Part shown: one piece after another, positions 6,462-61,252 of the stretch | Layout: every line of letters begins with the position of its first letter | Numbering within the stretch: the stretch's first letter is position 1 | IMG/VR virus record: IMGVR_UViG_3300028792_000003 | Coordinates: 27,794-91,793 of that record | DNA length: 64,000 bases | Reading direction: 5' to 3' (one strand) | Source of the DNA: a virus | Taxonomy: Duplodnaviria; Caudoviricetes | Made by a program: the position numbers and the translations under genes | Notes under the pieces: generated by a model | What the model saw: the letters and a program-made list of their open reading frames with translations, nothing else | What the model was told of the DNA's origin: nothing | The model's database searches: none

Positions 6462-6466
6462 TCTCG

Positions 6467-7411: not shown

Positions 7412-7436
7412 GCCTCGCCAACAACAACATGAAAGC

Positions 7437-44124: not shown

Positions 44125-47100
44125 ATGGGATTCCTCGACGGGCTGTTCGAGAAGAAGTCGGCAGCCAACGACCGGGCGACCGGGCACGCCATCAGTGGCT
44201 CGCCCAACGCGATGGCCTACGGCTACGCGTCCGGTGGTGACTGGGACACCGACAAGGCAGTCAAGGCCGGGTACGAGAAGGTGCTCTGGGTGTTCCGGTG
44301 CGTCGATGCAATCGCGTCGAACCAGGTGACCATCCCGATCTATGAGCAGCGCGGTGCGCAGAAGCAGCAGCAGGGGCACCTGAAGAACCACAATCCGAAG
44401 TTGCATCACCTGCTCAACGTGCGGGCCAACTCGTACGAGGACGCCGCCATGTTCCGGTACCGGCTGACCAGCCTGGCTCTGCTGTCGCGGCGGGGTGTGT
44501 TCATCGAGGTGGTCGGCAACCCGAACAACCCCGAAGCGCTGCACCTGATCCCGCCCGGTTCCTGCGAGCCGATCCCCGACCCCAAGACGTTCGTATCGGG
44601 CTACAGGGTCCGCACCGCCAACGGCAGCGTCGAAGAGTTGAAGCCCTCGCAAGTGATCTGGATCAGGGTCAAGCCGCACCCGACCGACCCGTATGCGCAG
44701 ATGACTCCGCTGGTGGCAGCGGGCATCACCGCCGAGACGGACTACTTCGCTCGCCTGTTCAACAGGAACTTCCTGATGAACGACGGGCGTCCGGGACTCC
44801 TGATCACGGTGGACGGGCCGATCAGCCCGGAAGACGCGCAGGAACTGAAGCGCAGGTTCTCCGGTGGGGCTAGCACTGCGGGCCAGGCATCCGTCATCGA
44901 GGCAGAGGGTCTGAACGTCGCGGACCTGTCGGCTACTCCTCGGGATGCGCAGTGGCAGGAAGTCACCCGGGTCAGCAAGGAAGACCTGCTGCTGGCGTTC
45001 GGTGTCCCGGAGAGCATCCTCGGCAACGCGAGCGGGCGCTGCGTGGATGACCAGACCGAGGCGTTCACAAAGCGCGGTTGGGTCAACGGGTACGACCTGA
45101 CCACGGATGACGTGATCCTGTCGTGTGACCCTGCGGACGGGCGGATGAAGTGGTCCCCCATCCACGAGGTCTACCGCAACCACAACTACGCGGGCGACAT
45201 GTACCGGCTGAAGCACAGCCACGCCGACTTCCTGGTCACTCCCGGTCACAACTGGCTGACCACGGACGGTGAACTGGTCAAGGTCGAAGATCTGAACACT
45301 CACTCTCGGCTCGTGTTGATGGGTGATGCCGAGGACTCGACGGACAAGGCGATCTATGACGACGCGCTTGTCGAACTGGTCGGTTGGTACGCAACCGAGG
45401 GGTACAACGGCGGCAAGAAGACCCCGTATCTGCGCATCCGGCAGAACGACGGTCCTAACTCGGTCCGGATCGAGGACGCCCTTCAGCGTGCAGATGCTGC
45501 TTACTCGACACACCGCGACGAGAAGAAGTGGCTGTTCAACATTCGTGGTGACGTGGCCAGGCAGATCGACCAGATCGCACCGGAGAAGATCATCTCGTAT
45601 GACTTCATCCGCGATCTGACCGCCGATCAGCGGATGCTGCTGATGAACACGATGGTTGACGGAGACGGATGCCGTCAGGGATCAACCAAGTCGCTCACGT
45701 TCGCGCAGAAGGACAAGCGCGCGTCTGAGGCGTTCGTCTACCTGGCCACCCTCTGTGGGTACAGCACGTCACTCCGGGAGCGGTCCTACACCTACAGGCA
45801 CAAGGGTGTCGAGCAGCAGAAGAGTGACTGGATCGTGATCGTTCGGCACCGCAAGGTCACGACTACCCAGCGGAACACTGTCTCGATGGAGAAGTACAAC
45901 GGATTCGTCTGGTGCCCTCGTACGGACTACGGCACGTTCGTGGCTCGCCGCAACGGTCGGGTGATGGTTACCGGCAACACCTTCGACAACGCCGATGCCG
46001 AGTACGAGATCTTCTGGACGCACACCATGAAGCCGCACTGCGAAGCGCTCGCACGTGGCCTGGACCCGTTGACCGGCAGCATCGGTGACAGCACGAAGGT
46101 GGCGTTCGACTACTCGACGGTGGACGTGCTCCAGCGGCAGGAGCGCCGTCAGCACGACAAGGCGTTCGCGGAGTGGCAGGCCGGAGCCACCAGCCTGGAC
46201 GAGTACCGGATGGCCACTGGCAAAGACCCCATCAACGTGCCGGGATCGCGGATCATCGTGCTCCCTTCCGGCATTGCCATCGCGCACAGCCCCGAGGACC
46301 AGGCAGCCGTCACCAAACTGCCGAACGTCTACGCGGCCATGCAACAGGCCGGGCAGCAGGGTGCAGGCGGTGCAGGCGGTGCAGACGGTGCGGCAGGAGC
46401 CACAGGAGGCCCTCTGGGAGCGCGTCCGCCCCGTCCGGGTGGGGTATCCGGCCAGGGACTGCCTGCGGGCGCTACAGCCGGAATGCGGGCCATCGAGTCC
46501 GGGGCTGCACACGCCGGGGCGATGGCAGGAGTGCAGGCCGGTCTGCACAACCTGGACAACCAGATGTCGGCACGGGCACTCAGACTGGCCGGGAAGAACT
46601 TCATCCCGTCCCGGCAGATCGAGAAGAAGGCCCTTCACAACTCTGCCGGTGCAGGCAGCACAGGCAGCGGCACGGACGGGCAGGTCATCGACGTGCTCGG
46701 CTACGAGGTCAAGGAGCACCCCTACGCGGACCAGCGCAGAACTCTGGAAGGCCAGTTGCAGGGGGTGATGCTCTCCTGGGGCAACCGGCAGGCCAAGGTC
46801 TGCGTGGACCGGCTGGGCCACAGCAAGGTGCGCAAGGGCACCCGGCACTGGGACGGCGAGGAGAGCAAGGCATTCCGTGGGCTGGATGCTTTCTACGTGG
46901 TCGAGGTGGACAAGTGGGTCGATGAAGTGCAGTCCGACTTCCGGGTGATCCTGACCGACGCCATGAAGAAGGAGGCCCTGCGAGTTGCCCGGGACATGCA
47001 GGACACCGGAGTGCTGGCCGACATGCTGACGGCCGGGAAGGGCAACCCCAAGGGCGTGTCCCCGCTGGACAAGGTGATGGGCTCGCGGCAGCAGAAGGAA

Positions 47101-47544
47101 GCCATGTTGGAGCAGGTCATGCAGTCCGTGCTCGACGTGGTGGAAGCAAGTACCCGCAGGCAGTCGCACCGGATCGCGGAGAAGATCCAGCAGATGGACC
47201 AGGCCGGTGCGTCGCTGGCAGAGATCCGGGAGCAGACCCGCAGGATGGTCGCTGATCAGTCCACCTGGCACAAGGCGCTGACCACGAACATGACGACTGC
47301 GGCCTACGAAGGCGTCAAGCACGAGGTCTACGCGACGGCGGGAAACCTGCTGGAGAAGGTCTGGAACTGCCTGGAGGACGAGCGGGTCAGGTTCAGCCAC
47401 AAGGAAGTGGACGGGGACACTCGACGTGTCGGCGTCCCGTTCATCGTCGGGAAGTCGGCGATGATGTATCCAGGCGATCCCGAAGGGCCAGCCGAAGAGG
47501 TGGCAAACTGCCGCTGCTTCCTAACTTTTCAAACCACGCAGTGA
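44125..47544 (+). CDS. HK97-type portal protein with intein, fused to C-terminal MuF/head morphogenesis domain
   Basis: VFRCVDAIA, LLNVRAN, NFLMNDGRPG, AFGVPESILG; C-terminal W...DERVR.SH...YPGDP...EVANCRC. Confidence 0.92.
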   Translation: MGFLDGLFEKKSAANDRATGHAISGSPNAMAYGYASGGDWDTDKAVKAGYEKVLWVFRCVDAIASNQVTIPIYEQRGAQKQQQGHLKNHNPKLHHLLNVRANSYEDAAMFRYRLTSLALLSRRGVFIEVVGNPNNPEALHLIPPGSCEPIPDPKTFVSGYRVRTANGSVEELKPSQVIWIRVKPHPTDPYAQMTPLVAAGITAETDYFARLFNRNFLMNDGRPGLLITVDGPISPEDAQELKRRFSGGASTAGQASVIEAEGLNVADLSATPRDAQWQEVTRVSKEDLLLAFGVPESILGNASGRCVDDQTEAFTKRGWVNGYDLTTDDVILSCDPADGRMKWSPIHEVYRNHNYAGDMYRLKHSHADFLVTPGHNWLTTDGELVKVEDLNTHSRLVLMGDAEDSTDKAIYDDALVELVGWYATEGYNGGKKTPYLRIRQNDGPNSVRIEDALQRADAAYSTHRDEKKWLFNIRGDVARQIDQIAPEKIISYDFIRDLTADQRMLLMNTMVDGDGCRQGSTKSLTFAQKDKRASEAFVYLATLCGYSTSLRERSYTYRHKGVEQQKSDWIVIVRHRKVTTTQRNTVSMEKYNGFVWCPRTDYGTFVARRNGRVMVTGNTFDNADAEYEIFWTHTMKPHCEALARGLDPLTGSIGDSTKVAFDYSTVDVLQRQERRQHDKAFAEWQAGATSLDEYRMATGKDPINVPGSRIIVLPSGIAIAHSPEDQAAVTKLPNVYAAMQQAGQQGAGGAGGADGAAGATGGPLGARPPRPGGVSGQGLPAGATAGMRAIESGAAHAGAMAGVQAGLHNLDNQMSARALRLAGKNFIPSRQIEKKALHNSAGAGSTGSGTDGQVIDVLGYEVKEHPYADQRRTLEGQLQGVMLSWGNRQAKVCVDRLGHSKVRKGTRHWDGEESKAFRGLDAFYVVEVDKWVDEVQSDFRVILTDAMKKEALRVARDMQDTGVLADMLTAGKGNPKGVSPLDKVMGSRQQKEAMLEQVMQSVLDVVEASTRRQSHRIAEKIQQMDQAGASLAEIREQTRRMVADQSTWHKALTTNMTTAAYEGVKHEVYATAGNLLEKVWNCLEDERVRFSHKEVDGDTRRVGVPFIVGKSAMMYPGDPEGPAEEVANCRCFLTFQTTQ
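45040..45978 (+). mobile_element. intein with LAGLIDADG endonuclease in the portal
   Basis: CVDDQTEAFTKRGW, VTPGHNW, GWYATEG/TMVDGDG, VWCP...VTGN followed by Thr. Confidence 0.92.
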
Positions 47545-47556
47545 GAGGAAACACCC

Positions 47557-48036: not shown

Positions 48037-48081
48037 CCGGCAGCCTGATCACCAGCCTGACCGGCAGCAAGACCGGGAGCC

Positions 48082-48132
48082 AGAGGGGCGGTACTGCGCA
48101 GACCTGAGAACTGCACAGTGCCGTCCCTCTTC
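48082..48132 (+). terminator. terminator-like hairpin
   Basis: agaggggcggtactg...cagtgccgtccctct. Confidence 0.55.
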
Positions 48133-48184
48133 AGGTAGCAGCACAGAACGCAAGTCTCACTACCAGTAGGAGGGACCGTTCGAC

Positions 48185-49138
48185 ATGAGCGGCATCGTAG
48201 TTCCGCAGAAGACCACCGCTCTGATCGAGCAGGCCCAAGACATCATCCAGCAGAAGGTGGCGGGGGAGTTTTCCACCCGCACTCGCCGGGTGCCGCTCTA
48301 TCTGCACGACGGCAGCGACGTGAAGTGCCTTGCTCATGTGCAGGCCATGATGGGCGTGGACCGGATCACGGCTGCCATGTACTGCGCAGAGCAGAAGTCA
48401 AGAATGCCGTTCGTCTTGGGGGTGGAAAGCAAGTCAGTGCTGATGGAGGCTGGCCACCTGGAGGAGAAGGCAGTCCGTCACGTCCGGGACGCGGGCTACT
48501 GGGGCAAGCCGGTGGGAACCATCATCATCGGCGACTCTGGTGGCAAGGGCGGCAGCACCCTGGACAACCTGAAGTTCGTGGAGTCCCCCTACAAGGGCTG
48601 GGACACGGTGGCAGCCAAGGACGGCACCCAGTTCGAGGTCGGCTACGACGACAGCACCAGCAGTTGGGTGGCAGCCCGGATGCCCGGTGGCTGGGACGAT
48701 GTTGTCGTGGAGGGAGCCAAGACCAAGGACGACGCGCTGAAGAAGTTGAACTCGGTGGCAGGCAAGAGCCACGGTACTGCCAGCACCCAGACCCCGGCAG
48801 ACGCGTCCCAGGCCGGGAGATCGGCTCCTGTGGCTTCTAGTGATGCTTTCCGGGACAGCCTGAACCCCAAGGGGCAGTGGGCCTACGACCGACAGGTCAG
48901 GCTGGGCAACTCTGTGCAGGACGCCCGAGCCGAAGGTCAGCGGATGCACGACATCGGTGAAGAAGGCCAACAGGTAGCGAATGGCCAGCGAGCAGAAGCC
49001 CTGAAGCGCATCTTCTCGAAGTTGGATGGCTGGAAGCACTACACACGTGAGAACCTGAAGGACATGCCGTACCGGTTGCTGCAACAACTGGAGCAGGCGT
49101 ACGACAACGAGCACCGGAGTAGTGGGGGCAAACGATGA
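48185..49138 (+). CDS. head-module protein carrying the shared VRHV tag and ~70-aa repeat domain
   Basis: EKAVRHVRDAGYWGKPVGTII...GWD...EVGYDDST..WVA..GGWDDVVV. Confidence 0.75.
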   Translation: MSGIVVPQKTTALIEQAQDIIQQKVAGEFSTRTRRVPLYLHDGSDVKCLAHVQAMMGVDRITAAMYCAEQKSRMPFVLGVESKSVLMEAGHLEEKAVRHVRDAGYWGKPVGTIIIGDSGGKGGSTLDNLKFVESPYKGWDTVAAKDGTQFEVGYDDSTSSWVAARMPGGWDDVVVEGAKTKDDALKKLNSVAGKSHGTASTQTPADASQAGRSAPVASSDAFRDSLNPKGQWAYDRQVRLGNSVQDARAEGQRMHDIGEEGQQVANGQRAEALKRIFSKLDGWKHYTRENLKDMPYRLLQQLEQAYDNEHRSSGGKR

Positions 49139-51000
49139 CACTGATCATGCTGGAGGAACTGGACCACCTGGAACTGAAGGCAGTCCGGAAGGTCCGCACT
49201 CCTGGTGGCGCGAAGAAGTACGGGCAGGAGATCGGGACGATCATCGTGGCCGATGGAAAGCCGCCGCTGAAGAACCTGAAGATCGCTCCCAAGGGCGAGT
49301 ACGTCGGCTGGGACTTGGTGCACGGCTCGGACGGGAAGCAGTACGACGTCGGCATGGACGAGACCACCGGTCACTGGGTAGCCACCCGGGCCGGTTCGTG
49401 GGACGACATCGCGGTGGACAACGCCAGCAGCGAGGAAGAGGTCTACACGCTGCTGGACAAGGCGGTAGGCACCGGCAAGCGCCGGAAGGGAGACACTCTG
49501 CTCGGGTCGCACAGCAAGTACGACACCGAACGAGACCGCACCAAGGGCCGCAAGCACATGCAGACGCAGCGGGACCAGGCCAAGGACAAGTACGGCGACC
49601 GCAGGAAGGCGGGCTACGACAAGTTCGTCTCCGCCGCGATCATCAACTACGACAAGGCAGTCAAGGACGGCGACTACGCTCAGGCGCAGGACTGGCTGGA
49701 CAAGATGTTCGAGTCGATCAAGGCCCGGCACCGTCAGGACCAACTGCGAGCGGATGCTGCACTACAGGACAGCGCGAACAGGAACAACAGCAAGAAAGGC
49801 CCTATGAGCGTCACGCAGGTGCAGGAGCGCGCTGCGCAGATGCTGGCCGACCTGCAAGAGTCCTCCGTGTTCCAGAAGCACAAGGCCCAGATGGAGGCCC
49901 ACGACAAGAAGAAGCGCGACGGACTGGCCCGCAGAGTGGACGCGCTGAAGAAGTACACTGACGAGGGTCCGGGCTACGACCGGGACATCGCGGGCAACAT
50001 CAGCCGCTACCACGAAGAGATGGCCAACCTTGCCGGTGCTGATGGTCCGACCGCACGCAACGAGGTGATCAGCAACGCACAGGTTCACCTGCAACGTGCA
50101 GAGCGACGGGCAGATGCCAAGCGCAACACCGGCATCGTGCAGCACTCGCCGGTAGGACAGCCGGAGAAGGACAAGACGTCCAACAAGAAGCCCACTCCGG
50201 GGCAGGAAGGCTCGTCCGTCACCATCGGCGGGATGAAGGTCACGGTCACTCGGTCTGCCAGGCGGGACGCTCACGGGATGACCGACATCGGGATGCATTA
50301 CCTGGACCGCGACTACGACGTGCAGATGCCGTCGTACCAGGCCGGGAAGGCCAGCAAGATCACGGTCACCGATCCGACCAGCGGCAAGCAGGAGGAAGGC
50401 TTCCTGCCGCCCCGTGAAGAGGCAGGCGCTACCCCGGCAGATCGAGCCCAGCACGCCAACAGCCTGCTGGCCGGGATCATCAAGCGGCTGCACGGCAAGT
50501 TGGGAGACTCGCCCAACACGGCACGCAGGGGCATGCTCCAGAAGGGCAGTGCTGTACTCAGCACGCCGAACGACGACAAGAACAGCCTTTCCGGAGCGGA
50601 CCGGCAGAAGTTCCAGACCCTGAAGCGGCACCTGGACCTGGCCATCGCCACCAACGACGGAGAGCGTGCAGCAGCGGTGCTGGACCTGCTGGACGAGACA
50701 CTGTCCGACTCGGGGGTGGACAAGAAGCACGACACCCGGAAGCAGATCGAGAGGTTGCAGGACGCGACCAAGTACATGACGCAGCATCCGACCCTCAGCC
50801 TGGACCGTCCGATGACCAACAACGACCTGGCCGGGCAGGAGTCCTGGGTGCTCCAGAAGTTCCTTGCTGCCAGCGAGTCGGAACTCGCTGACGTTGCCGG
50901 GTCGAAACGAAAGGCGGATGTCGCACGGGCTGAGACACTGAAAGCCAACATCAGCCGGACCCAGCACACGCTGGCCAGCAGCACCGCCAACCAGCAGTAA
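49135..51000 (+). CDS. head-module protein carrying the shared VRKV tag and ~70-aa repeat domain, large unknown C-terminus
   Basis: LKAVRKVRTPGGAKKYGQEIGTIIVADGK...GWD...DVGMDETT..WVA..GSWDDIAV. Confidence 0.75.
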   Translation: MTLIMLEELDHLELKAVRKVRTPGGAKKYGQEIGTIIVADGKPPLKNLKIAPKGEYVGWDLVHGSDGKQYDVGMDETTGHWVATRAGSWDDIAVDNASSEEEVYTLLDKAVGTGKRRKGDTLLGSHSKYDTERDRTKGRKHMQTQRDQAKDKYGDRRKAGYDKFVSAAIINYDKAVKDGDYAQAQDWLDKMFESIKARHRQDQLRADAALQDSANRNNSKKGPMSVTQVQERAAQMLADLQESSVFQKHKAQMEAHDKKKRDGLARRVDALKKYTDEGPGYDRDIAGNISRYHEEMANLAGADGPTARNEVISNAQVHLQRAERRADAKRNTGIVQHSPVGQPEKDKTSNKKPTPGQEGSSVTIGGMKVTVTRSARRDAHGMTDIGMHYLDRDYDVQMPSYQAGKASKITVTDPTSGKQEEGFLPPREEAGATPADRAQHANSLLAGIIKRLHGKLGDSPNTARRGMLQKGSAVLSTPNDDKNSLSGADRQKFQTLKRHLDLAIATNDGERAAAVLDLLDETLSDSGVDKKHDTRKQIERLQDATKYMTQHPTLSLDRPMTNNDLAGQESWVLQKFLAASESELADVAGSKRKADVARAETLKANISRTQHTLASSTANQQ

Positions 51001-51015
51001 CGGGAGAGACAGACC

Positions 51016-51303
51016 ATGCCACTCACCACTAAGCACTGGTACGTGAACGGCGATACCGTCACGCCCGTGAACTGGTCCACCGCCGTGGTGAACGGCGTGG
51101 CCACTATCGACATTGACGAGATCACTCTGCGCAGCGACCAGGCGCACCCGGACCGCTGGAACTGGGCGAACAAGAACACCCAGGTGCCCGGCAGCGCAGT
51201 GACACAGGCTCAGGCACTTCAGGACGGCGGGGCGGTGCCGCAGGAGCGCTTCCCCGGCAGTGCCCCGGGCAAGTTCGCCACCCCCGCCATCACGGTCGCC
51301 TGA
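51016..51303 (+). CDS. hypothetical protein, probably virion-associated
   Basis: GGAG RBS; ends PAITVA, similar to the PPITVT end of 63049-63660. Confidence 0.6.
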   Translation: MPLTTKHWYVNGDTVTPVNWSTAVVNGVATIDIDEITLRSDQAHPDRWNWANKNTQVPGSAVTQAQALQDGGAVPQERFPGSAPGKFATPAITVA

Positions 51304-51356
51304 CCGGTCAACCAACCAGCAGCCAGTACCAGCCCCAGTAGAGGAAGAGAAACGTC

Positions 51357-53021
51357 ATGGGCATCTTGGACGCACCGGGCAGGACACTCGCGGTGAACAG
51401 CACCGTCAGTACGGACGGCACCCTCGCGGTGAACAGGCACAACCCGGTGGACGCTTCTGCCAGTAACCGGACGATGACTCTTCCGGATGCCACGGGCGGC
51501 GGTCAGACCGTGATCGTCAGCAAGAAGGACAGCACGTCCAACACTGTCACGATCAACGTGGCGCACCTCCGGGACAACGGTGCCGGGACGGTCACGCTGG
51601 ACTACCAGTTCGAGTCGCTGGAGTTCCTGAGCAAGTCGGACGGCACGTGGTGGCCGATTGCAGGCCACAAGACGAAGGCGCAACTATCGGCCACATTTGC
51701 CACGGTCGCCGGACTCCAGAAGAACACCCGCAAGATCGTCGGCTACGAGTCCCTTGTGGCCGCGCTCTCTGAGGCCCAGGACGACGTGGCGGTCGGACTC
51801 GTTGGGGATTCCACCGGGGACGCGGTGGATGAGTGGTTCTACCTGTTCGGCCAGTACCTGGCAACCACCAACCCGGCGTACACCGCCAAGCACCGGGCCT
51901 GGTCCGACTCCACGCAGAAGTTAGCCGCTCCGACCACCTACCAGACCGGCACGGGCGGCGTTCAGCGCGCGGTCGTGATGGCCCCCTCGGGCATCACTGG
52001 TGGCGTCGGCTTCGCGGGGCCGAACGTGATCACCGACCTCGACGTGGCGATCTATTGCAAGCCCGGCACCTGGCGCTCGGGCACCCAGACGTTTGTGTCC
52101 AAGTTCAGCACCTCGGGCACCGATCGGTCGTTCCGGTTCCAGATCAACAGCACCGGCAATCTCGTCTTCGACTGGACCGCGGACGGCACCACCATCCAGA
52201 CTGCCGCGAACTCCGGCACCACGGTCCCGTTCGCGGACGGAACCGCAGGGTGGGTCCGGGTCGTCCTCGATGTGGACAACGGCACCGGCGGGCACGCCAT
52301 CATGTTCTACACGTCCACCGATGGCCTCACCTGGACCCAACTCGGGTCCACCGTCACCCGAACCGGCACCACAACCAGCGTGTTCGCGTCCACCTACGCC
52401 TACGAACTCGGCGTCCGCTCGGGCGGCTCCGAGCCCCTGTACGGGGCACGCATCTACGAGGTGGAGATCCGCGACGGCATCGACGGACCCACCATTGCAC
52501 CCCGGCTGGCAACCCTGTGGAACCGAGGCGTCGGCACGGGCGTCCCGACCATCGAAGGTGCTCCGGTGCTGACGATGGTCAACGGGTCCATGCCCGGCGC
52601 GGCCACGTCGTACCTGAACGACCCGGTGCGCTACAAGCGGATGACCCCCGACTACGGCCAGGCGGTCGTGTTCTTCTCCGACTCCCACAACGAGCAGAAC
52701 ACGGTCGGGCAGGCGTGGATCACGCTGCTGTCCTCATGGGTGACCAACGTGCTCGGTCGGCTGCCGATGGCCGCCCCGGTGCTGCTCACCCAGAACCCGC
52801 GCTACAGCCCGACGACGTTCATCGACTCCCACGCCAAGCGGCGCAGGCAGACCATCGGCTGGGCACGGCAGAAGGGCTACTCCGTCATCGACACCTATCA
52901 GGCGTTCCTCGATGACGGACGCGGCGCGGCGCTCATCAACATCGACGGTATCCACCCGACCCAGGTCCCCAACGGCGGGCAGGCCGTGTGGCTCAACGCC
53001 ATCAAGGCCCCGCTGCTCTGA
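51357..53021 (+). CDS. virion-associated SGNH/GDSL hydrolase with inserted LamG/concanavalin-like beta-sandwich
   Basis: VGDSTG block I and DGIHP block V separated by a Thr/Gly-rich beta region. Confidence 0.7.
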   Translation: MGILDAPGRTLAVNSTVSTDGTLAVNRHNPVDASASNRTMTLPDATGGGQTVIVSKKDSTSNTVTINVAHLRDNGAGTVTLDYQFESLEFLSKSDGTWWPIAGHKTKAQLSATFATVAGLQKNTRKIVGYESLVAALSEAQDDVAVGLVGDSTGDAVDEWFYLFGQYLATTNPAYTAKHRAWSDSTQKLAAPTTYQTGTGGVQRAVVMAPSGITGGVGFAGPNVITDLDVAIYCKPGTWRSGTQTFVSKFSTSGTDRSFRFQINSTGNLVFDWTADGTTIQTAANSGTTVPFADGTAGWVRVVLDVDNGTGGHAIMFYTSTDGLTWTQLGSTVTRTGTTTSVFASTYAYELGVRSGGSEPLYGARIYEVEIRDGIDGPTIAPRLATLWNRGVGTGVPTIEGAPVLTMVNGSMPGAATSYLNDPVRYKRMTPDYGQAVVFFSDSHNEQNTVGQAWITLLSSWVTNVLGRLPMAAPVLLTQNPRYSPTTFIDSHAKRRRQTIGWARQKGYSVIDTYQAFLDDGRGAALINIDGIHPTQVPNGGQAVWLNAIKAPLL

Positions 53022-53112
53022 CTGCCCCACTTCGCCCGCATAGTGCTAGGTAAGAACTAACTAGCACCAGCGTCAATTGGGGCAGTCTGAACTGGCAGTG
53101 ACAGCACAGGAA

Positions 53113-53147
53113 CAGAGCGACTCGTGTCCAGCACACGGGTCGTTCTG
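53113..53147 (+). terminator. 15-bp hairpin in intergenic gap
   Basis: cagagcgactcgtgt/acacgggtcgttctg. Confidence 0.5.
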
Positions 53148-53219
53148 CTCTTCCCGTGAGACCCTGCACACGACGGACCATCTGACTTGCCTGACCTGCA
53201 CCCGATCAGGGAGAACCAC

Positions 53220-56200
53220 ATGAACATCGCTGCACGGGCGATTGCAGCCACGAAGAGCCTGTCCCCGGTGTCTGGGGTCAACGGCACCCTGGAACGCCCG
53301 CAGAACGGCGCTGACGGATCGGCAGAACGCTCTGCTGGTCTGCTGCCGCCGCCTGCCAGCGACCTGGACGGGTTCGCGGTGATGCTGATCCCGCAGGACG
53401 ACGACGCAGCGGACATCGCTCCGTTCTGCGCGGTGGACCCGTCCGACCTGCACACGACGCTGGTCTACTACGGCGACGCCGCTCAGTACAAGGGTCAGTG
53501 GACGGGTGACCTGCTGGCCAAGGTACTACAGGCTGTTGCACTTGTGCAGGAGCCGATCCAGGCAGTGCTGGGCGGGGTGATCAGGTTCTCTGGCAAGCCG
53601 GGTGGTAACGACCCCATCGTGTTCAGCGTGGACAGCAAGGATCTGTCTGTCTTCCGGCAGGCAGTTCTCGACCGGCTCGCTGACGAGTGCAGTATCACCG
53701 AGCAGACGGAGCACGGGTTCACGCCGCACATGACGATGGGCTACTTGCCGCACGACGAGTCGCTGCAACTCAACGGCTGGAAGCCCAGGAAGATCGTCTT
53801 CGACCGGGTGCGGGTCGGGTTTGGCAAGGACCAGTACGACGTCTACTTGGGCGAGGGTTGGGGCGACAAGTCCGTCCGGCACGTGTCCAGTGCTGCGGGA
53901 GTACGCCGGTACAACCTCCCCATCGGCAGCGTGATCGGCTCTGACGGACCGCAGGTTCTGCCGCTGGACATCGAAGAGCCCGACCCGAAGTTGAACAAGC
54001 CTCGTGACATGGCCCGGATCAGCAAGCGACCCGACGTGGCCGACGCAAGGACCGAGTACAGCCACATGCAGGCCCAGTTCGAGACGTTGCAAGAGCGCGA
54101 CGACGAGTACTGGAGCAGCACGGACAAGAACTCGTACACGGACTCGCCGTCCGCGAAGTTCTACCGGGACTACGGGTTCACGCACGAAGACACGCAGTAC
54201 AACGACTCCGGCCTTGCTGGTGCCGTTGCCCAGGGGCCGTGGGCCGGGTTCGGAGCCTGTAAGGCGATCCGGCAGTCCGCGTACGACATGCTGGGGTTCA
54301 AGTCCACGAACCAGTCAGAGACGCGCGGTGACGCGCACATCCACACTGCTGCGCCGTCATGGGGAGCGGGTGCGGGAGTGAACAACCCTGCCCTGCACGC
54401 CTACGCGCTGATGATGGGAGTGCGGGACGGCGACAGGTTCCACCAGCCGCTGTACCGGGGAGTGACGGTTCCGGACAGTGCCGGGTTCGTCAAGAAGTTG
54501 AAGGAGGGGGACACCTTCGACATGCCGCTGGTGTCTTTCGCCAACGACCGGGGCACCAGCGCTCGCTTCGGCACCGACGTCACGTTCGTCTTGCAGTCGG
54601 GTGCTCGTGCTGTCGAGGGTGGAGTGATGGGCCTGCCGACGGACGACCCGCGCCACCACGACTGGGTAAACGGGATGCTGGAAGATGACGACTTCCGGGA
54701 GTACGTCTCCGGTGGCAGGTTCAGGATCACCGGCATCCGGCCCAACAGCAACGGCTACACAGTGCTGATCAAGCAGATAGGAGTGTTCGACCCGCAGACT
54801 GCCGTCCTGACTAAGACAGACGGTGCAGGCAAGTATGTGCAGCCGAACTTCTCCTGGATGTTCGACACCGCGCTGGCACTGCCGAAGCCGAAGAAGAAGC
54901 AGGCTGGAAACCAGGAGAAGGCAGCCCTGCTGGTGTGCAAGGACTGTGGCAAGACCTATGCGGCGGACAGTCAGGAGGAGATCGACGCGCACCGGGCTCT
55001 GCATGACGATAAGCAGGAGCACAAGGACGTCTACAACGGGATGCCTGGCCTGCCGATGAAGCGCAAGCCGAAGCGCCCGAAGATCGTCCAGCGCACGCCG
55101 TCTGCACTCAGGACGCGGGCCAGCACCCATGTAGCCCGGAACATCACCAGCGAGAAGAAGGACGGCGCTCTTGACTTGGTTGCTCGTGCTCTGGCCGTAG
55201 AACTGAAGACGGTCAGGCATGTGGCCACTCAGGCTGGAGCCAAGCGGTTCGGTCAGCCCATCGGCACCATCATCGTCGCGGACGGCAAGACTCCGCTACC
55301 CAACCTGTCGATCAGCAAGAAGCCCGCGTACGACGGCTGGACCAACATCGACGGCACGGACGGCAAGACCTACGAGGTGGGTCACGACGACAGCACCGAC
55401 TCTTGGGTCGCCTGCGGTCCCGGTGGCTGGGACGACGTGGTGGTGGACCGTGCCAAGTCTGAGGACGATGCTCTGCGGAAGTTGGACGCCTACGTCAAGA
55501 AGCAGCCGCAGAAGAAGACTCCGCTGAAGCCGAAGACGACCGTTGCCAAGAGCAGTACTGGCAACAAGAAGCCGGTGGGTACGGCCAAGGCTCGTGCGGC
55601 TGCGGGAACCGGCTACAAGCGCGTGGGCAAGGGGTTGGATGTCCAGGGAGAGAACAACAACATCCCCTACGGCAACGCACCCGCAGAGGAACGCAAGCGC
55701 AGGATTCCTCCGGGCACCAGGACGTTGCGCAAGTACACCGACAAGAGTCCCGAGGCCGCTGCCTTCCGGAAGAAGTACGGAATCCCGCCCGCCTACAAGA
55801 CGTTCTGGATCAACGAATCGCGGGACGAGAGCGCTCCCGACAGTCAGTACGACGGCCTCGTCTTCATCGGCTACGACGAGTTCAAGAAGAAGGATCAGTT
55901 CGTCTTCTCGTCCCGGCACTGGGACCGGCAGGACGGGAAGAAGTTCGGAACCAGCAACGATCCCGACGCCGCAGAACTGAGCAACGTGCCGGTGCTGCTG
56001 AAGAACCGGACCCGGGTGCTGAACGTGCTGAAGAAGGATGCACAGTCCAGCGATCCCAAGAAGCGAGCCGCAGCACGCGCACTGCTGGTGCAGGCCATGA
56101 CCGGCATGCGGATCGGCGCGGAGCACAAGAAGGGCGAGCGTGCCATCGACAGGCGGTACGGGGCGTCCACCCTGGAGGCACGACACGTCACCGTCAACAA

Positions 56201-56690
56201 GAACAGCGTGACGTTCAACTTCATGGCCAAGGGCAATCACCCTCGCTTCGATGACGCGGGCCAGCCGATCCTGAACCCGAACGGGAAGAACATCTGGCCG
56301 GGCAAGCCCTACAAGGTGCGGATCACGGACAAGACACTCGTTGACCTGATGACTGACGAACTGGACTCGAAGGCACGCAACGACAGGCTGTTCCAGGCAT
56401 CCGCCAGCCAGGCCAACGACTACTTCCGCGACGTGCAGAAGCAACTCAAACTGTCGGGCGACCTGACGTCGCACAACTTCCGGCACGTCAAAGCGACGAT
56501 GGTCGCCCTGTCTGAGATCGACAAGATGACCAAGCCGAAGACAGAGGCCGACTTCATCAAGAAGCAGCGGGAGGTGTGCGAGCGAGTAGGTGCGGTGATC
56601 AACGACAGTTGGGATGTTGCTCGGCGGTCGTACATCATGCACAGCGTGTGGCAGGCATGGACCAACGGAACCGACTGGAAGGCGCTCTGA
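53220..56690 (+). CDS. polyvalent protein: 2H phosphoesterase + ADP-ribosyltransferase + C2H2-like finger + repeat domain + DNA topoisomerase IB
   Basis: LHTTL/PHMTM; LYRG...VSF...REYV; CKDC...H...H; IPPAY..WI, GMRIG, YGASTLEARHV, F.AKG, SHNFR, ARRSYI. Confidence 0.85.
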   Translation: MNIAARAIAATKSLSPVSGVNGTLERPQNGADGSAERSAGLLPPPASDLDGFAVMLIPQDDDAADIAPFCAVDPSDLHTTLVYYGDAAQYKGQWTGDLLAKVLQAVALVQEPIQAVLGGVIRFSGKPGGNDPIVFSVDSKDLSVFRQAVLDRLADECSITEQTEHGFTPHMTMGYLPHDESLQLNGWKPRKIVFDRVRVGFGKDQYDVYLGEGWGDKSVRHVSSAAGVRRYNLPIGSVIGSDGPQVLPLDIEEPDPKLNKPRDMARISKRPDVADARTEYSHMQAQFETLQERDDEYWSSTDKNSYTDSPSAKFYRDYGFTHEDTQYNDSGLAGAVAQGPWAGFGACKAIRQSAYDMLGFKSTNQSETRGDAHIHTAAPSWGAGAGVNNPALHAYALMMGVRDGDRFHQPLYRGVTVPDSAGFVKKLKEGDTFDMPLVSFANDRGTSARFGTDVTFVLQSGARAVEGGVMGLPTDDPRHHDWVNGMLEDDDFREYVSGGRFRITGIRPNSNGYTVLIKQIGVFDPQTAVLTKTDGAGKYVQPNFSWMFDTALALPKPKKKQAGNQEKAALLVCKDCGKTYAADSQEEIDAHRALHDDKQEHKDVYNGMPGLPMKRKPKRPKIVQRTPSALRTRASTHVARNITSEKKDGALDLVARALAVELKTVRHVATQAGAKRFGQPIGTIIVADGKTPLPNLSISKKPAYDGWTNIDGTDGKTYEVGHDDSTDSWVACGPGGWDDVVVDRAKSEDDALRKLDAYVKKQPQKKTPLKPKTTVAKSSTGNKKPVGTAKARAAAGTGYKRVGKGLDVQGENNNIPYGNAPAEERKRRIPPGTRTLRKYTDKSPEAAAFRKKYGIPPAYKTFWINESRDESAPDSQYDGLVFIGYDEFKKKDQFVFSSRHWDRQDGKKFGTSNDPDAAELSNVPVLLKNRTRVLNVLKKDAQSSDPKKRAAARALLVQAMTGMRIGAEHKKGERAIDRRYGASTLEARHVTVNKNSVTFNFMAKGNHPRFDDAGQPILNPNGKNIWPGKPYKVRITDKTLVDLMTDELDSKARNDRLFQASASQANDYFRDVQKQLKLSGDLTSHNFRHVKATMVALSEIDKMTKPKTEADFIKKQREVCERVGAVINDSWDVARRSYIMHSVWQAWTNGTDWKAL

Positions 56691-56692
56691 TC

Positions 56693-56821
56693 ATGGGCTA
56701 CGTCGAAGATACGGACATCGCAGACGTGCAGGACGTTGCAGTAGTAGACGTCCCGACCGAAAAAGAAGAGGCTGCCCTGACGGTCAAGTACGGCCACCTG
56801 CTAGGACTGAACGATGCCTAG
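56693..56821 (+). CDS. small acidic protein
   Basis: fills the gap between the polyprotein and the protease gene. Confidence 0.4.
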   Translation: MGYVEDTDIADVQDVAVVDVPTEKEEAALTVKYGHLLGLNDA

Positions 56822-59690
56822 GAACACCAGGCTGGACGCACGGGCCGAAGCGTTCCTGGAGGAGAAGGCAGTCGTACGCACACCCGGTGGCCGAGTAGGC
56901 AGCGACGACAAGCACGGCAGCAGTGCGAACGGCACCAACTGGGTGGAGCGGTCCAAGCCCGGGAAGAAGGGCAGCCTGCCGCGCTACATCCGGATCGTGC
57001 GCAACGGGTTGATCAAGGACGGCAAGTCCGAGTCGCAGGCAACGGCGCTGGCCGTGTCCGCGATCAAGAGGTGGGCTTCGGGTGGCGACAACGTGTCGCC
57101 CAAGGTGCAGAAGGCCGCAGCGCAGGCTCTGGCCGAGTGGGAAAAGATGAAGCAGTCCGCACATGCGAAGAAGGATGACGCGCCGGATTTCCAGGACGAC
57201 TGGTCGGAATCCTCTAGTCTTCAGCACCAGGACCAGAACACCACTGAGATGAAAGGCTCGACAGCGATGCACATGGAGCACAAGTCGGTCGGGGTGAGTG
57301 GCCTCAGCGTCGTTGACGAGACCAAGGGCGTCGTGGAGACCATCGTCTCCGTGACCGGCATCGTGGACAACGTGAAGGACATCATCGAGCCGGGCGCGTA
57401 CACCAAGTCCCTGAACACCCGCACTCCCAAGGGCGTCTGGAGCCATTCCTGGGACACCCCTGTTGCGAAGACCATCGCAGTCAAGGAACTGATGCCAGGA
57501 GACAGCGACCTGCCTGCCAACCTTCCCAGCGGCCTACCCTGGCCTGCTGACGCCGGAGCGCTGCTGGTGAAGACCCAGTTCAACCTGGGCACCCAGCGCG
57601 GGCAGGAAGCCTATAGCGACGTGACCTTCTTCGGTGACCAGCAGGAGTGGTGCGCTGACGCCGACACGGAGATCCTGACGCAGCGTGGCTGGGTCCGTTA
57701 CGACGACCTGACCACGGATGACCTTGCCTACACGCTTGATCCGCAGATGGCGGTGGGTCGCTTCGAGAAGGTCGAGGCGGTCAACATCTGGGAAGACAAG
57801 ACGCGTACGATGCGCAAGATCGAGACCGGTGGGCACTCGTCACTGACCACTGCCCAGCACCGCTGGCCCGTGGTTCGAACGATGACGGGCGGGCATGTCG
57901 ATTGGAAGACCACCGACACACTGGACACTCGTGACCAGTTCTTCCGGGCAGCACAGCGAATCGACGCGCCCATCGAGGCCAAGTACAACGATGCCTTCGT
58001 GGAGATTGTTGCGTGGTTCTGGAATGAGGGGTGGGTTCCTCCGGCAGACCATTCGGATGCGGGGTTGTACTTCGCGCAGTCTGTGGACAAGAACCCACAG
58101 CACGTCGCCGCCATCAGGTCTGCGCTCCAGCGGGCGTTCAACGGCCACTGGACCGAGCGGCACAGCAACGATGGCATGGCGCGTTTCCGGCTCACCCGGG
58201 AAGCGGCGAGCCACGTCCTGGCAGTGACCGGGGAGCACAAGCAGCCGCTTCCGGAGTTCATCACGTCGTTGACCACCGCGCAGTTGCGACTGTTCATCGA
58301 GAAGTGCCTCGATGGGGATGGCCACCGGGCCAAGGGCGGTCAGCGGACGTGGTACCAGGTTGAAGATGCGTCTGTCCGTGCGTTCGAGATGATCTGCGCA
58401 CTGGCTGGCGTTCCGACCAACACAAAGGCGCAGAAGGACTATGGCAATCGTCATGGTCGTACTCCGCAACGAGTGGCACTGCTGAAGTCCGGCATGGTCG
58501 GTCCGCTTGCTTCAATCAAGACGAAGGGCTACGGCTACAAGACGGGTGACCCGCGTACGCCGTCCACTGACGAGTGGGTCGAGCACACCGGCATCGTCTG
58601 GTGCCCGACAACTGCTTCAGGCACCTGGCTCGCTCGACGCAATGGTTCGATCTACTTCACCGGCAACAGCATCGGCTACCAGGTTCCGGTGGGTGGCGCG
58701 ACCATCGACAGCAAGACCGGCCAGCGCAGGATTCACACGCTGGAACTCTACGAGTACAGCCCCGTCCTGTTCGGTGCCATGCCTGCCGCTCGTACCCGGA
58801 TGGGCGAGTTGGACGGTGTGAAGTCGGCTCAGATCGCGTTCAAGTCGATGAGCATGAATCCCGTCGAACTGAAGGAGTGGGCCGGTGAGATCAACCTCGA
58901 CATCACGGACTTCCTCGAAGCAAAGGACGGCAAGCCCAAGAACAACAAGCCGTCTGACTCGAACGAGGACGAGGACGATCTCTTCCTCGCGGGTGACGAA
59001 GAGGATGCAGAAGACGCAGCCGACGGTGGCATCGACGAAGCCGAAGAGGACGACGAAGACGACACCGCCACAGCCAAGCGCGGTCACAAGTCCGCGTACA
59101 CGGCGTGGGAGCACGAGATTCTCGTCAAGGCCCACGACGCCATCGGTGCAGTCCTTGGATTCGGGAACACGACCGACGCGGACGACATCTCCGACCTCAC
59201 CGAGCAGAAGGGTGCAGCCGATCCCAACGGCGACGACCCCGAGGACTCCGGTGCAGGCGGCGACGGTGGAGCCGACGAAGCCGACGAGACGTCCTCGCTT
59301 TCCGATGTTGTCTCGAACTTCGCGGAAGTCCTGAAGAACAACGAGATGGATGACATCGAGTCCTACGCGTCTGACTTCGATGACGCCGTTGACGGAAGCG
59401 ATCCGGATGGCGCAGAGCAGGCCGGTAACGCGATCCTGGACATGATCGAGGGCATCGAGGAGCCGGACAGCGACCTGCGGGAAGCGTTCAGCGCAGTGGC
59501 CCGTGCCATTGCCGATCTCGCCCCGGAGGCAGCCGGTGACTCTGCTGCGCAGACGGACAGCGCTGGCAACGATGCTCCTCCGGCTGACGAGACCGACACC
59601 CAGAAGAAGACGGATGACGCGGTGATCACCATCGAGACGAAGCAGTTGGATGCTTTGCGTGCGTCGTTGCTCGGGAATTACAGGATCTAG
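56814..59690 (+). CDS. HK97-type prohead (capsid maturation) protease with intein, N-terminal extension and acidic C-terminal scaffold-like region
   Basis: VDNVKDIIEPGAY, WSH, G.EAY, EW|SIGY, LYEYSPVLFGAMPAAR. Confidence 0.9.
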   Translation: MPRNTRLDARAEAFLEEKAVVRTPGGRVGSDDKHGSSANGTNWVERSKPGKKGSLPRYIRIVRNGLIKDGKSESQATALAVSAIKRWASGGDNVSPKVQKAAAQALAEWEKMKQSAHAKKDDAPDFQDDWSESSSLQHQDQNTTEMKGSTAMHMEHKSVGVSGLSVVDETKGVVETIVSVTGIVDNVKDIIEPGAYTKSLNTRTPKGVWSHSWDTPVAKTIAVKELMPGDSDLPANLPSGLPWPADAGALLVKTQFNLGTQRGQEAYSDVTFFGDQQEWCADADTEILTQRGWVRYDDLTTDDLAYTLDPQMAVGRFEKVEAVNIWEDKTRTMRKIETGGHSSLTTAQHRWPVVRTMTGGHVDWKTTDTLDTRDQFFRAAQRIDAPIEAKYNDAFVEIVAWFWNEGWVPPADHSDAGLYFAQSVDKNPQHVAAIRSALQRAFNGHWTERHSNDGMARFRLTREAASHVLAVTGEHKQPLPEFITSLTTAQLRLFIEKCLDGDGHRAKGGQRTWYQVEDASVRAFEMICALAGVPTNTKAQKDYGNRHGRTPQRVALLKSGMVGPLASIKTKGYGYKTGDPRTPSTDEWVEHTGIVWCPTTASGTWLARRNGSIYFTGNSIGYQVPVGGATIDSKTGQRRIHTLELYEYSPVLFGAMPAARTRMGELDGVKSAQIAFKSMSMNPVELKEWAGEINLDITDFLEAKDGKPKNNKPSDSNEDEDDLFLAGDEEDAEDAADGGIDEAEEDDEDDTATAKRGHKSAYTAWEHEILVKAHDAIGAVLGFGNTTDADDISDLTEQKGAADPNGDDPEDSGAGGDGGADEADETSSLSDVVSNFAEVLKNNEMDDIESYASDFDDAVDGSDPDGAEQAGNAILDMIEGIEEPDSDLREAFSAVARAIADLAPEAAGDSAAQTDSAGNDAPPADETDTQKKTDDAVITIETKQLDALRASLLGNYRI
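57651..58667 (+). mobile_element. intein with LAGLIDADG endonuclease in the prohead protease
   Basis: CADADTEILTQRGW, TAQHRW, AWFWNEG/KCLDGDG, VWCP...FTGN followed by Ser. Confidence 0.92.
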
Positions 59691-59795
59691 TGCTTTAATC
59701 GGCACTAACGAGTTCGCCACAGTGCTGACTGGTGGCAAGCACTCACCACACAGAAGTACCCAAACAGCACCCACTTGGAAAGGTAGGAAACCGCG

Positions 59796-61172
59796 ATGTC
59801 TGTTGACACCACGCGGGTGGCGGAACTCGAAACCGCTTACCAGGAGAAGGTCGCCTTCATCAACGAGGGCATCGAGAAGGGCGTCAAGGTCGATGGGGCC
59901 AACGTCGAGATCAAGTCGGACGACTGGAAGGCCCTGGAGGCGGCGCGCGACGACGCTCTTCAGATCAAGTCGCTGATCGGCATGCAGTACATGGGCGACG
60001 AGTTCAAGTCGTTCATGGGCAACATGCAGGCGATGGCCGGTGACGGTTCGTCCACCGCTTCTGTCGCTCTTCAGGCGGCGCAGCAGATGCAGCGTCCCGA
60101 GATCAAGTCGCTGGGCGCGGCGTTCACGGACTCCGAGGAGTTCAAGTCCCTGCTGAAGTCGGGCCGGATGACCATGGACACGCCGTTCACGATGGAGGCG
60201 CACGACGTCTCCGCGTACGGCACCTACGGTCAGAAGGACGTCTTCGGGGCGATGTCGGGTGCGCAGCACACGATCAACCACGGCTTCGGCTCGATTCAGT
60301 TCGACCCGATGATCCCCCGTCCGCAGCGTCCGACTCGTGTGCGTGACCTGTTCCCGGTCGCCACCACGAACGCCAACCTGATCGACTACTTCCGCGTGCT
60401 CGGCTTCGCGGAGAACAGCGGCCAGGGCAACGCGCTTCCGGTCCGGGACCGCGCTGCTGCTGATGGCACGTCCAACCCGGCTGGGAACAGCACCGACACG
60501 TTCGGCCTGAAGCCCAAGTCGAACCTGACCTTCGAGTCGGCTCAGGCTCCGGTCCGGACCCTGGCCCACTGGGAGGCCGCGCACCGCAACGTCCTTCAGG
60601 ACGAGCCGCAGTTGCAGTCCACGATCAACAACGAACTGCTCTACGGCCTGGCGCTGGAGGAGGACTTCCAGATCCTTCAGGGCGACGGCACCGGTGAGAA
60701 CCTGCTCGGCCTGCTGAACGCGAACAACACGCAGTCGTACACCCAGGCGTCCAGCGGCGGTACCCCCACGGAGTTGAAGAGCGATGCTCTTCGCCGTGCG
60801 GCCACCAAGGCGTTCCTGGCGTACTACCCGGCTACGGGCTACGTGCTGCACCCCTACGACTGGGAGGACATCGAACTCCAGCGGGGCACCACGAACGACC
60901 AGTACATGCTGGTCACGAACATCGCGGTGGGTGCGCAGCAGCAGGTCTGGCGTCAGCCGGTGGTCGAGACCCCGGCCATGCCGGAGGGCACCTTCGTCAC
61001 GGGTGCCTGGGGCATCGGTGCGCAGTTGTACGACCGTCAGGTCGCCAACGTGCGGATCGCGGAGCAGCACGCGGACTTCTTCGTGCGAAACGCGGTCGCC
61101 ATTCTGGTTGAGGAGCGGCTTGCATTTGCTGTGAAGCGTCCCCAATCCTTCGTTATTGGTCGCTTCGCCTGA
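59796..61172 (+). CDS. major capsid protein, HK97 fold, with N-terminal delta-like domain
   Basis: VRDLFPV, KPKSNLTF, VRTLAHW, EDFQILQGDGTGENLLGL, FVRNAVAILVEERLA. Confidence 0.95.
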   Translation: MSVDTTRVAELETAYQEKVAFINEGIEKGVKVDGANVEIKSDDWKALEAARDDALQIKSLIGMQYMGDEFKSFMGNMQAMAGDGSSTASVALQAAQQMQRPEIKSLGAAFTDSEEFKSLLKSGRMTMDTPFTMEAHDVSAYGTYGQKDVFGAMSGAQHTINHGFGSIQFDPMIPRPQRPTRVRDLFPVATTNANLIDYFRVLGFAENSGQGNALPVRDRAAADGTSNPAGNSTDTFGLKPKSNLTFESAQAPVRTLAHWEAAHRNVLQDEPQLQSTINNELLYGLALEEDFQILQGDGTGENLLGLLNANNTQSYTQASSGGTPTELKSDALRRAATKAFLAYYPATGYVLHPYDWEDIELQRGTTNDQYMLVTNIAVGAQQQVWRQPVVETPAMPEGTFVTGAWGIGAQLYDRQVANVRIAEQHADFFVRNAVAILVEERLAFAVKRPQSFVIGRFA

Positions 61173-61175
61173 TTC

Positions 61176-61205
61176 TTGACAAAGAAGTCCCCCTTCCGGC
61201 ATGAT
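61176..61205 (+). promoter_or_regulatory. sigma70-type promoter for the HNH gene, embedded in a hairpin
   Basis: TTGACA-N18-CATGAT. Confidence 0.55.
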
Positions 61206-61252
61206 GGCTACTTGCGTGAATAGTCATCGAATCCCGGAAGGGGGATTTCTTT
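61181..61252 (+). terminator. 19-bp hairpin after the capsid gene that also covers the HNH RBS
   Basis: aaagaagtcccccttccgg / ccggaagggggatttcttt, ending 1 nt before the ATG. Confidence 0.7.

Follow-up and report, generated by a model that had tools for sequence, protein, structure and literature searches.

Why would a bacteriophage translate three unrelated enzymes as one chain amid the genes that build its head? The question is raised by the gene at positions 53220-56690 (+ strand; 1156 amino acids, aa) of a 64,000-nucleotide stretch of IMG/VR virus record IMGVR_UViG_3300028792_000003. This stretch (hereafter, the window, to which all positions refer unless stated otherwise) comprises the final 64 kb of a 91.8-kb virus genome that is complete according to CheckV. 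The gene lies within the head-assembly module, between the portal-MuF gene and the genes for the S78 protease and the capsid protein, as annotated with PHROG and Pfam. Its product is predicted to be a multidomain (polyvalent) protein with three enzyme modules, a 2H phosphoesterase, an ADP-ribosyltransferase (ART) and a type IB topoisomerase (TopIB); the catalytic residues of all three are intact and retained in relatives. We interpret it as a polyvalent capsid-cargo protein, made together with the head proteins and composed of three independently functional enzyme modules, a reading to which we assign a probability of roughly 0.55.

The phage is an uncultured virus of the actinobacterial type. 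Among cultured phages, Gordonia phages of the Bendigovirus type (GMA6 and DalanDe) come closest, with ~68-70% nucleotide identity that is confined to parts of the terminase and portal genes. The G+C content is 60-65%, and the annotated genes of the studied region are all on the + strand. The reading frame of interest is open, uninterrupted, from an in-frame TTG at 53187 to 56690, and the likely start is the ATG at 53220, which is preceded by a GGGAGA ribosome-binding site. An earlier, sequence-only reading of this locus had treated 53220-56690 as a single gene; this is correct, in that it is one intact open reading frame (ORF) on the + strand in which every landmark of that reading is in its place.

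Three enzyme modules in one protein

The 2H phosphoesterase domain (aa ~56-212; 53385..53855, + strand), delineated with Pfam, PHROG and a family profile, contains both signature motifs, H78-T-T at nucleotide 53451 and H170-M-T at nucleotide 53727, with H170 and T172 invariant across the family alignment. It matches Pfam 2_5_RNA_ligase2 (PF13563; aa 76-182, E 1.9e-8, 34.9 bits against a cut-off of 27) and PHROG 2659 ('RNA ligase'; aa 53-212, E 7e-16), and a six-member family profile matches the LigT-like 2H protein 1vdx in the PDB (E 9e-4). With both HxT motifs present and the Pfam score above the cut-off, the 2H domain proposed in the sequence-only reading is confirmed. The role that was suggested for it, counteracting the cyclic oligonucleotide-based anti-phage signaling system (CBASS) or type III immunity, gains no specific support from a generic LigT-like match that comes without a match to Acb1, the anti-CBASS 2H phosphodiesterase of phages. 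The domain shares with Acb1 and with the LigT/ThpR 2',3'-cyclic phosphodiesterases the 2H superfamily and its two HxT/S motifs, but differs from Acb1 in matching generic LigT-like models, with no Acb1 match at the sequence level. Among the Pfam and NCBIfam models, only LigT-like ones were matched, TIGR02258 at 16 bits, and a single-sequence phmmer search of all PDB chains with this domain (E<=10) retrieved neither Acb1 nor any 2H protein, a type of search that by itself cannot exclude distant kinship between this domain and Acb1. The domain may equally well process RNA ends or degrade 2'-5' or cyclic signals.

The ADP-ribosyltransferase module (aa 255-565; 53982..54914, + strand), defined by an AlphaFold2 (AF2) model, Foldseek and a sequence profile, combines a helical N-terminal subdomain with an R-S-E core. 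Its signature residues are those of YRG (R413), VSF (S439, within PL[AV]SF) and FRE-Y (E494). In a 45-sequence alignment, R413 (R159 of the module) is invariant, E494 (E240 of the module) is retained in at least 90% of the sequences, and the helical subdomain contains an invariant Trp and a nearly invariant Arg. The AF2 model built from this alignment reached a pLDDT of 86.4 and a pTM of 0.84. In a Foldseek search of the PDB with the model, the best match was Tre1 (5.6e-7), followed by Vis, XopAI, HopU1, ExoS/T, C3 and CDTa; there were 81 matches at E<=1e-3 and, among the matches listed, all are ARTs or ART-fold effectors. The sequence profile matches Vis (E 0.013), with the YRG, STS and ExE of Vis in register. 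The model thus identifies this region as an R-S-E ADP-ribosyltransferase fold. The earlier description of an ART-like domain with YRG, VSF and FRE but not the usual [QE]xE is accurate in each of these respects, and its fold assignment is now backed by structure prediction and fold search. Specifically, two positions before E494 the target has F, and its relatives have N or A. The first Glu or Gln of the [QE]-x-E turn sets the acceptor specificity of ARTs.

The module shares its fold and the aligned Arg, Ser and catalytic Glu with the R-S-E toxins (Tre1, 6drh; Vis, 4xzj; C3; ExoS/T; HopU1), but differs from them in the unconserved first residue of [QE]xE (F, N or A) and in its long helical N-terminal subdomain; identity to the toxins is 10-15%. 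The module has no Pfam match, ART-PolyVal and ADPrib_exo_Tox included, and a tblastn search of 50,697 GenBank phage records returned no match either. The family as a whole is missing from the cultured phages in these records, and it is rare: an exhaustive phmmer search of 1.84 billion representative sequences with the ART region yielded 71 relatives, each representing a cluster, 17 of them below 1e-30. The stronger relatives are mostly long multidomain proteins, and short proteins are found among the weaker ones. We considered naming the clade after Pfam ADPrib_exo_Tox, which matches three of the 45 relatives, but dropped the name: in P0022 the match lies on a second, separate domain, and ten short relatives lack any Pfam ART match.

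The ART module is followed by a zinc-finger-like element of the form CxxC...HxxxH (C573-x2-C576...H591-x3-H595; aa 573-595, 54936..55004, + strand). The residues of the C2H2-like finger noted earlier are thus in place, but the call itself is weak: the match to Pfam zf-C2H2_3 (E 8e-4, 19.6 bits against a cut-off of 27) stays below the cut-off, and the ligands are retained only in P0010 and P0013, partly as Cys, and in a 551-aa ORF of the related locus L017 described below.

The C-terminal part of the protein (aa ~846-1156; 55755..56687, + strand; Pfam and family profile) consists of an 'IPPAY..W' region and the catalytic domain of a type IB topoisomerase. The catalytic pentad comprises R964 (GMRIG), K1004 (MAKG), R1088 (NFR), N1128 and Y1138 (RSYI); four of these residues do not vary across the family alignment, and all six sequences also have the Lys, although a gap offsets it. 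Pfam Topoisom_I (PF01028) matches aa 933-1130 (E 1.9e-8, 34.4 bits against a cut-off of 23.7), with relatives reaching E 4e-24, and the six-member family profile matches the TopIB of D. radiodurans (2f4q; 7.3e-17, with the pentad aligned), variola (3e-6) and vaccinia (9e-6). The TopIB core of the sequence-only reading accordingly stands, with its R, K, R and Tyr at their positions and a Pfam match above the cut-off; N1128, the fifth pentad residue, was absent from that reading. To all appearances, the C-terminus is a complete, active TopIB of the bacterial/poxvirus type. It shares the R-K-R-(N/H)-Y pentad and the catalytic-domain sequence with D. radiodurans 2f4q, variola 2h7f and vaccinia 1a41, and its Asn occupies the fourth pentad position, as aligned with 2f4q. 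It differs from these enzymes in being the C-terminal module of a putative polyprotein encoded among phage head genes, in an extra insert (aa ~1006-1030), and in the tag, beta domain and basic linker on its N-terminal side. Vaccinia TopIB is carried in the virion.

Among the 50,697 GenBank phage records, tblastn with the TopIB module found remote matches only (E 1e-4 or weaker): one uncultured phage of 485 kb, and topoisomerases of jumbo phages with genomes of 190-230 kb. A word-based search with the TopIB region alone retrieved P0009 as the sole match. In the 485-kb phage (LR745208.1), the 2H domain (E 2e-10) and TopIB (E 1e-4) are matched separately, at ~348 kb and ~404 kb.

Between the zinc-finger-like element and the topoisomerase lie two further regions. 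The first, domain B, is a small domain of a beta-sheet and a helix (aa ~696-764; 55305..55511, + strand), recognized by a search of the phage's own genome and by AF2 (core pLDDT >90), and it precedes TopIB in all aligned relatives. The segment that spans the tag and domain B (aa 657-790) has paralogs in the genes at 48185-49138 and 49135-51000 (E 5.8e-31 and 2.4e-24). For the fold of domain B, a Foldseek search of the PDB gave no match at E<=1e-3, the best Z of 4.7 in a wide VIA-align search was at background level, and the best ESM Atlas score, 0.78, was uninformative. A WW-like assignment (phmmer, 6jk1, E 0.73) was rejected as weak and is not supported by the AF2 model. The second region is a Lys/Ala/Pro-rich basic linker, recognized by composition (aa 765-845; 55512..55754, + strand), with 25 K+R against 9 D+E over aa 765-870, which is kept in kind across the family.

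A repeated tag at module boundaries

The boundaries between modules are marked by a repeated ~30-aa peptide, the tag, which was not part of the sequence-only reading. Its consensus is ([ED]-x-K)-[GAS]-V-R-x-V-R-T-P-x-G-x-x-x-[YF]-G-x-P-I-G-x-x-I. Two copies are present in the protein (a slash here separates the tag from what precedes it): J1 (aa 215-248, GDK/SVRHVSSAAGVRRYNLPIGSVIGSDG; 53862..53963, + strand; 64 bits with a hidden Markov model, HMM, of the motif) heads the ART module, and J2 (aa 659-695, VELK/TVRHVATQAGAKRFGQPIGTIIVADG; 55194..55304, + strand; 64.8 bits) heads domain B and TopIB. The tag also heads two upstream genes, both found by the own-genome search and the tag HMM: a 317-aa gene with a short variant of the tag followed by domain B (48185..49138, + strand), and a 621-aa gene with a 15-aa leader, LELK/AVRKVRTPGGAKKYGQEIG and domain B (49135..51000, + strand). 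The first half of the tag is found at the N-terminus of the prohead protease, in FLEEK/AVVRTPGGRVG. Synonymous sites vary among the four copies of the window, which indicates that the peptide is under selection.

With the tag HMM, we detected 72 distinct copies in the window proteins, in relatives (26 of the 80 collected proteins) and in loci L001 (genes 21 and 22 of Gordonia phage DalanDe), L005 and L012-L028 (17 IMG/VR loci). A copy stands either within the first ~40 residues of a protein or at the junction of two unrelated modules (GNAT, ART, TopIB, zeta toxin and MuF are among them), with up to four copies per protein. The order is tag-GNAT-tag-X-tag-ART-tag-domain B-TopIB in P0025, tag-ART-tag-...-TopIB-tag-zeta toxin in P0017, and MuF-tag-X-tag-ART-tag in P0033. 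In 57 of the 72 copies, a Lys lies no more than four residues upstream, and in 40 of these 57 it is immediately preceded by an acidic residue; internal copies usually stand behind [ED]-x-K. Several proteins with an N-terminal tag begin directly at M-x-x-V-R-x-V-R-T-P, which is the N-terminus that cutting after the Lys would create. Likewise, the protease of L017 starts with M-A-R-V-R-T-P-G-G, which is what would follow the Lys in FLEEK/AVVRTPGG.

The capsid protein has PEIK/SLGAAF at the expected boundary of its delta domain, with QMK/SLG and QVK/DLG in relatives; the K/SLG or K/DLG position corresponds to that at which HK97 gp5 is cut. A count of E-x-K-[SAGT] sites, of which the first 118 residues of the capsid protein contain four, was set aside as a test of the protease rule because at least two of the four belong to the conserved features of the capsid protein and persist where the P1' residue differs. 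The tag may bind the interior of the capsid, the acidic scaffold tail, the portal-MuF protein or DNA. Predictions of a complex between the tag and the capsid protein scored 0.00 in both runs and have no bearing either way on binding.

In every family member, J2 is preceded by a second conserved junction, [E]-x-K-D-V-Y-x-G...LRARA (55011-55190; aa ~598-657), which may serve as a further cutting site or belong to a propeptide of the TopIB module. In L012, L013, L015, L018, L023 and L024, ORFs of more than 2000 aa, ended by the edge of the locus, carry the tag in their first ~50 residues, and in L012 a neighboring tag-bearing ORF carries GNAT and MuF. The giant ORFs suggest that far larger cargo polyproteins with the same tag exist. 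In DalanDe (genes 18-22), the 2H gene (product gp19), annotated as 'RNA ligase', shares 4 bases with the end of the portal gene, and the large hypothetical genes that come next after it, genes 21 and 22, carry the tag.

Relatives and a split form

Five full-length-like metagenomic proteins share the order 2H...ART...TopIB, with different inserts between the tags, and ART and TopIB are fused in P0014, P0017 and P0025. MuF fusions occur among the relatives of the ART module, and relatives carry zeta-toxin, GNAT and additional ART modules. In IMG/VR, a scan with the full-length alignment found six remote 2H loci only.

A close relative, locus L017 (capsid protein, E 2.6e-165), encodes the same modules in split form: a 2H gene (317 aa) adjoins, at the same place, a separate 452-aa gene in which a leader and the tag precede domain B and TopIB. 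After the TopIB gene of L017 comes an ORF (5764-7419 in that locus) with the Cys/His finger, a copy of the tag and a module with the HEIGH zincin motif that has no Pfam match; its product could be a cargo metallopeptidase.

Gene order in the head module

The order of genes around the target is terminase, portal-MuF, two unknown genes (the tag-bearing genes described above), a tail-fiber-like gene, the target, the S78 protease and the HK97-fold capsid protein. The portal protein, with a C-terminal MuF-like domain, is encoded at 44125..47544 (+ strand; PHROG, Pfam and translation). The S78 prohead serine protease has an acidic scaffold-like tail (56814..59690, + strand; Pfam S78, translation), and the HK97-fold major capsid protein is encoded at 59796..61172 (+ strand; Pfam Phage_capsid, E 7e-38, translation). 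The synteny of terminase, portal(-MuF), unknown genes, target, S78 protease and HK97 capsid is shared by the window and three independent relatives; on the long contigs of relatives, the target homolog again lies between the portal and the S78 protease and capsid genes.

Other features of the module are as follows. Three of its genes apparently contain inteins. The terminase (40099-42774, + strand) has LAGLIDADG/Hom_end Pfam matches at aa 323-388; the portal insert, from SGR/C to VTGN/T, separates the portal and MuF parts; and the insert in the S78 protease extends from QEW/C to FTGN/S, the proteases of L005 and L017 being intein-free. The tail-fiber-like gene (554 aa; 51357-53021, + strand) matches PHROG 15641 'tail fiber protein' in its C-terminal part, where SGNH-esterase-like motifs (GDSTGD...DGIHP) are also found. 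Directly 3' of the capsid gene is an HNH endonuclease gene (61253-62023). A promoter and terminator scan of 47400-61400 was uninformative for the target gene: it showed one weak promoter-like site, near 61176, and 17 terminator-like matches against 9.0 +/- 3.6 in shuffled controls.

Packaging, cutting and the alternatives

The domain identities, the intact catalytic residues, the distribution of the tag, the position in the head module and the split form in a relative are established here, and the capsid-cargo reading accounts for them as follows. The protein would co-assemble into the procapsid with its two tag-bearing neighbors and the tag-like protease. The S78 prohead protease would then cut on the C-terminal side of the Lys in front of each tag, in the way predicted for the capsid protein at EIK/SLG, to give the 2H domain, a tag-ART piece (possibly with the zinc finger) and a tag-domain B-TopIB piece. 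The pieces would leave with the DNA into the next host, where the genome, on entry, would be relaxed or otherwise handled by TopIB. The ART would use NAD+ to modify a target of the host, and the 2H domain would hydrolyze 2',3'-cyclic or 2'-5' phosphodiester RNA or nucleotide substrates.

These steps do not stand on an equal footing. Packaging in the capsid we consider likely, and ejection with the DNA is slightly favored; cleavage at the tags by the prohead protease is put forward tentatively. That the modules would end as separate tag-headed proteins is suggested by the tag being N-terminal when a module stands alone, being placed behind [ED]-x-K when internal, and being shared in part with the prohead protease. 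The injected toolkit proposed in the sequence-only reading fits the fixed place among head genes, the MuF-fused ART relatives and the published concept of polyvalent proteins, with delivery itself a prediction; similarly, its term 'polyprotein' is plausible for modules that are delimited by tags and occur as separate genes in L017, with cleavage as the predicted part. More speculative still is the general proposal that a portable ~30-aa N-terminal tag and an [ED]-x-K rule of the HK97-type prohead protease load, release and inject exchangeable modules, a virion TopIB included, in actinophage-type viruses.

Several points weigh against this reading. Packaging, cutting, injection and substrates are all deduced from sequence and gene position. 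Pfam models do not capture this ART clade. The N-terminus of the protease matches only the first half of the tag (0.3 bits with the tag HMM), J1 has G-D rather than E-x before its Lys, and 15 of the 72 tags lack a nearby Lys; the ORF starts, taken from stop-to-stop ORFs, are uncertain, so that leader lengths are approximate. Finally, Pfam searches of the target at E<=1 found no MPTase-type processing peptidase and no LPD domain, unlike in many polyvalent proteins, and the 1156-aa protein might be carried and ejected uncut.

If it were packaged and ejected without being cut, the repeated peptide would be a structural or docking element that contacts the capsid, portal or DNA, or else a relic of gene fusion. 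The strong conservation of ~25 tag residues, which exceeds the need of a protease site, would fit such a role, as would the copies without a nearby Lys and the lack of an MPTase in a protein whose presumably processed polyvalent counterparts usually carry their own (PMC5512222). We nevertheless regard this alternative as unlikely: stand-alone proteins begin exactly at the tag, internal copies follow [ED]-x-K, L017 encodes the modules as separate genes, and the three enzymes differ in their targets.

Still less probable is a cytoplasmic multi-enzyme that acts late in infection outside the virion, in which TopIB would relieve the torsion of concatemers during packaging, and 2H and ART would take part in RNA repair like the 2H and KptA pair. 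Late co-expression with head genes is indeed no proof of packaging, and RNA repair does involve cooperation between 2H and ART-fold (KptA) enzymes (PMC9503650). However, the ART is of the R-S-E toxin type, closest to Tre1, Vis and C3, with no KptA/Tpt1 among the Foldseek matches listed, and no RNA ligase is linked to the gene. Relatives, moreover, fuse the same ART clade to MuF, 2H domains are fused or coupled to the portal in kin (PMC5512222), and the tag is common to several head-module genes.

The zeta-toxin, GNAT and additional ART modules of the relatives recall polymorphic toxins, and the protein could then be an effector directed at competing phages or bacteria, for instance in superinfection exclusion, rather than a take-over kit of the phage itself. 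Jamet and colleagues reportedly described MuF-linked polymorphic toxins in 2017, which counts in favor of this view. We consider it very improbable: TopIB and 2H are atypical as toxins, the target has no evident immunity gene next to it, and the element is a complete 92-kb phage in which the head-module position of the gene is conserved. That the long ORF is an artefact of assembly or annotation merging separate genes, as the separate 2H and TopIB genes of L017 might suggest, is hardly credible given a continuous frame without stops, at least five independent metagenomic proteins with the fused 2H...ART...TopIB order, and the fusion of ART and TopIB in P0014, P0017 and P0025.

Relation to known systems

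The closest precedent for the capsid-cargo reading is the class of polyvalent proteins of bacteriophages and conjugative elements, which combine several unrelated effectors in one polypeptide and for which delivery with the DNA has been predicted (Iyer, Burroughs, Anand, de Souza, Aravind 2017; PMC5512222). ART, GNAT and 2H domains, as well as fusions of 2H to MuF or portal, are regarded as probable head-packaged, injected effectors (PMC5512222; PMC9503650), and GNAT is a frequent neighbor of ART in polyvalent proteins (PMC5512222). The target resembles this class in joining unrelated effector enzymes, with three such domains encoded by a single ORF of the 92-kb virus record, and in its late, structural gene context beside portal, MuF and capsid. 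It differs in lacking MPTase and LPD domains, which are frequent but not obligatory in polyvalent proteins, and in having modules delimited by a conserved ~30-aa tag. The word 'topoisomerase' occurs only in the reference list of PMC5512222 and nowhere in PMC9503650, no description of a repeated inter-module tag was found in PMC5512222, and the literature on phage type IB topoisomerases yielded nothing comparable. A head-packaged enzyme kit is a known phage strategy, whereas topoisomerase cargo and this tag have probably not been described before.

A second precedent, that of phage T4, is better understood at the level of the virion. T4 Alt is a head-packaged ADP-ribosyltransferase that is injected with the DNA, and the internal proteins of T4 carry a capsid-targeting sequence of ~10 aa that is removed at L/I-x-E by the gp21 prohead protease. 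The likeness to the target lies in a head-packaged ART and in a short N-terminal signal common to the cargo that is trimmed by the head protease, as predicted here. The differences are that the tag of the target is ~30 aa long, would stay on the mature modules and precedes several modules per chain, and that gp21 is unrelated to the HK97-type S78 protease of this phage.

Implications

Head-packaged polyvalent proteins are a computational prediction that has seen very little experimental follow-up, and the protein described here adds two testable points. One is the complete TopIB which, if it is indeed capsid cargo, bears on how the incoming DNA is handled before host enzymes arrive. We know of no phage that carries a topoisomerase in its virion; if the capsid-cargo reading is true, this would be the first virion topoisomerase of a bacteriophage, parallel to that of poxviruses. 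The other is the tag, the presence of which at module boundaries and at the N-termini of stand-alone cargo provides a concrete hypothesis for the addressing of cargo and its release by an HK97-type protease. As the tag is found in the cultured Gordonia phage DalanDe, this central inference is directly testable, and the tag, if the reading holds, would be a general address label and a tool for loading foreign proteins into phage capsids.

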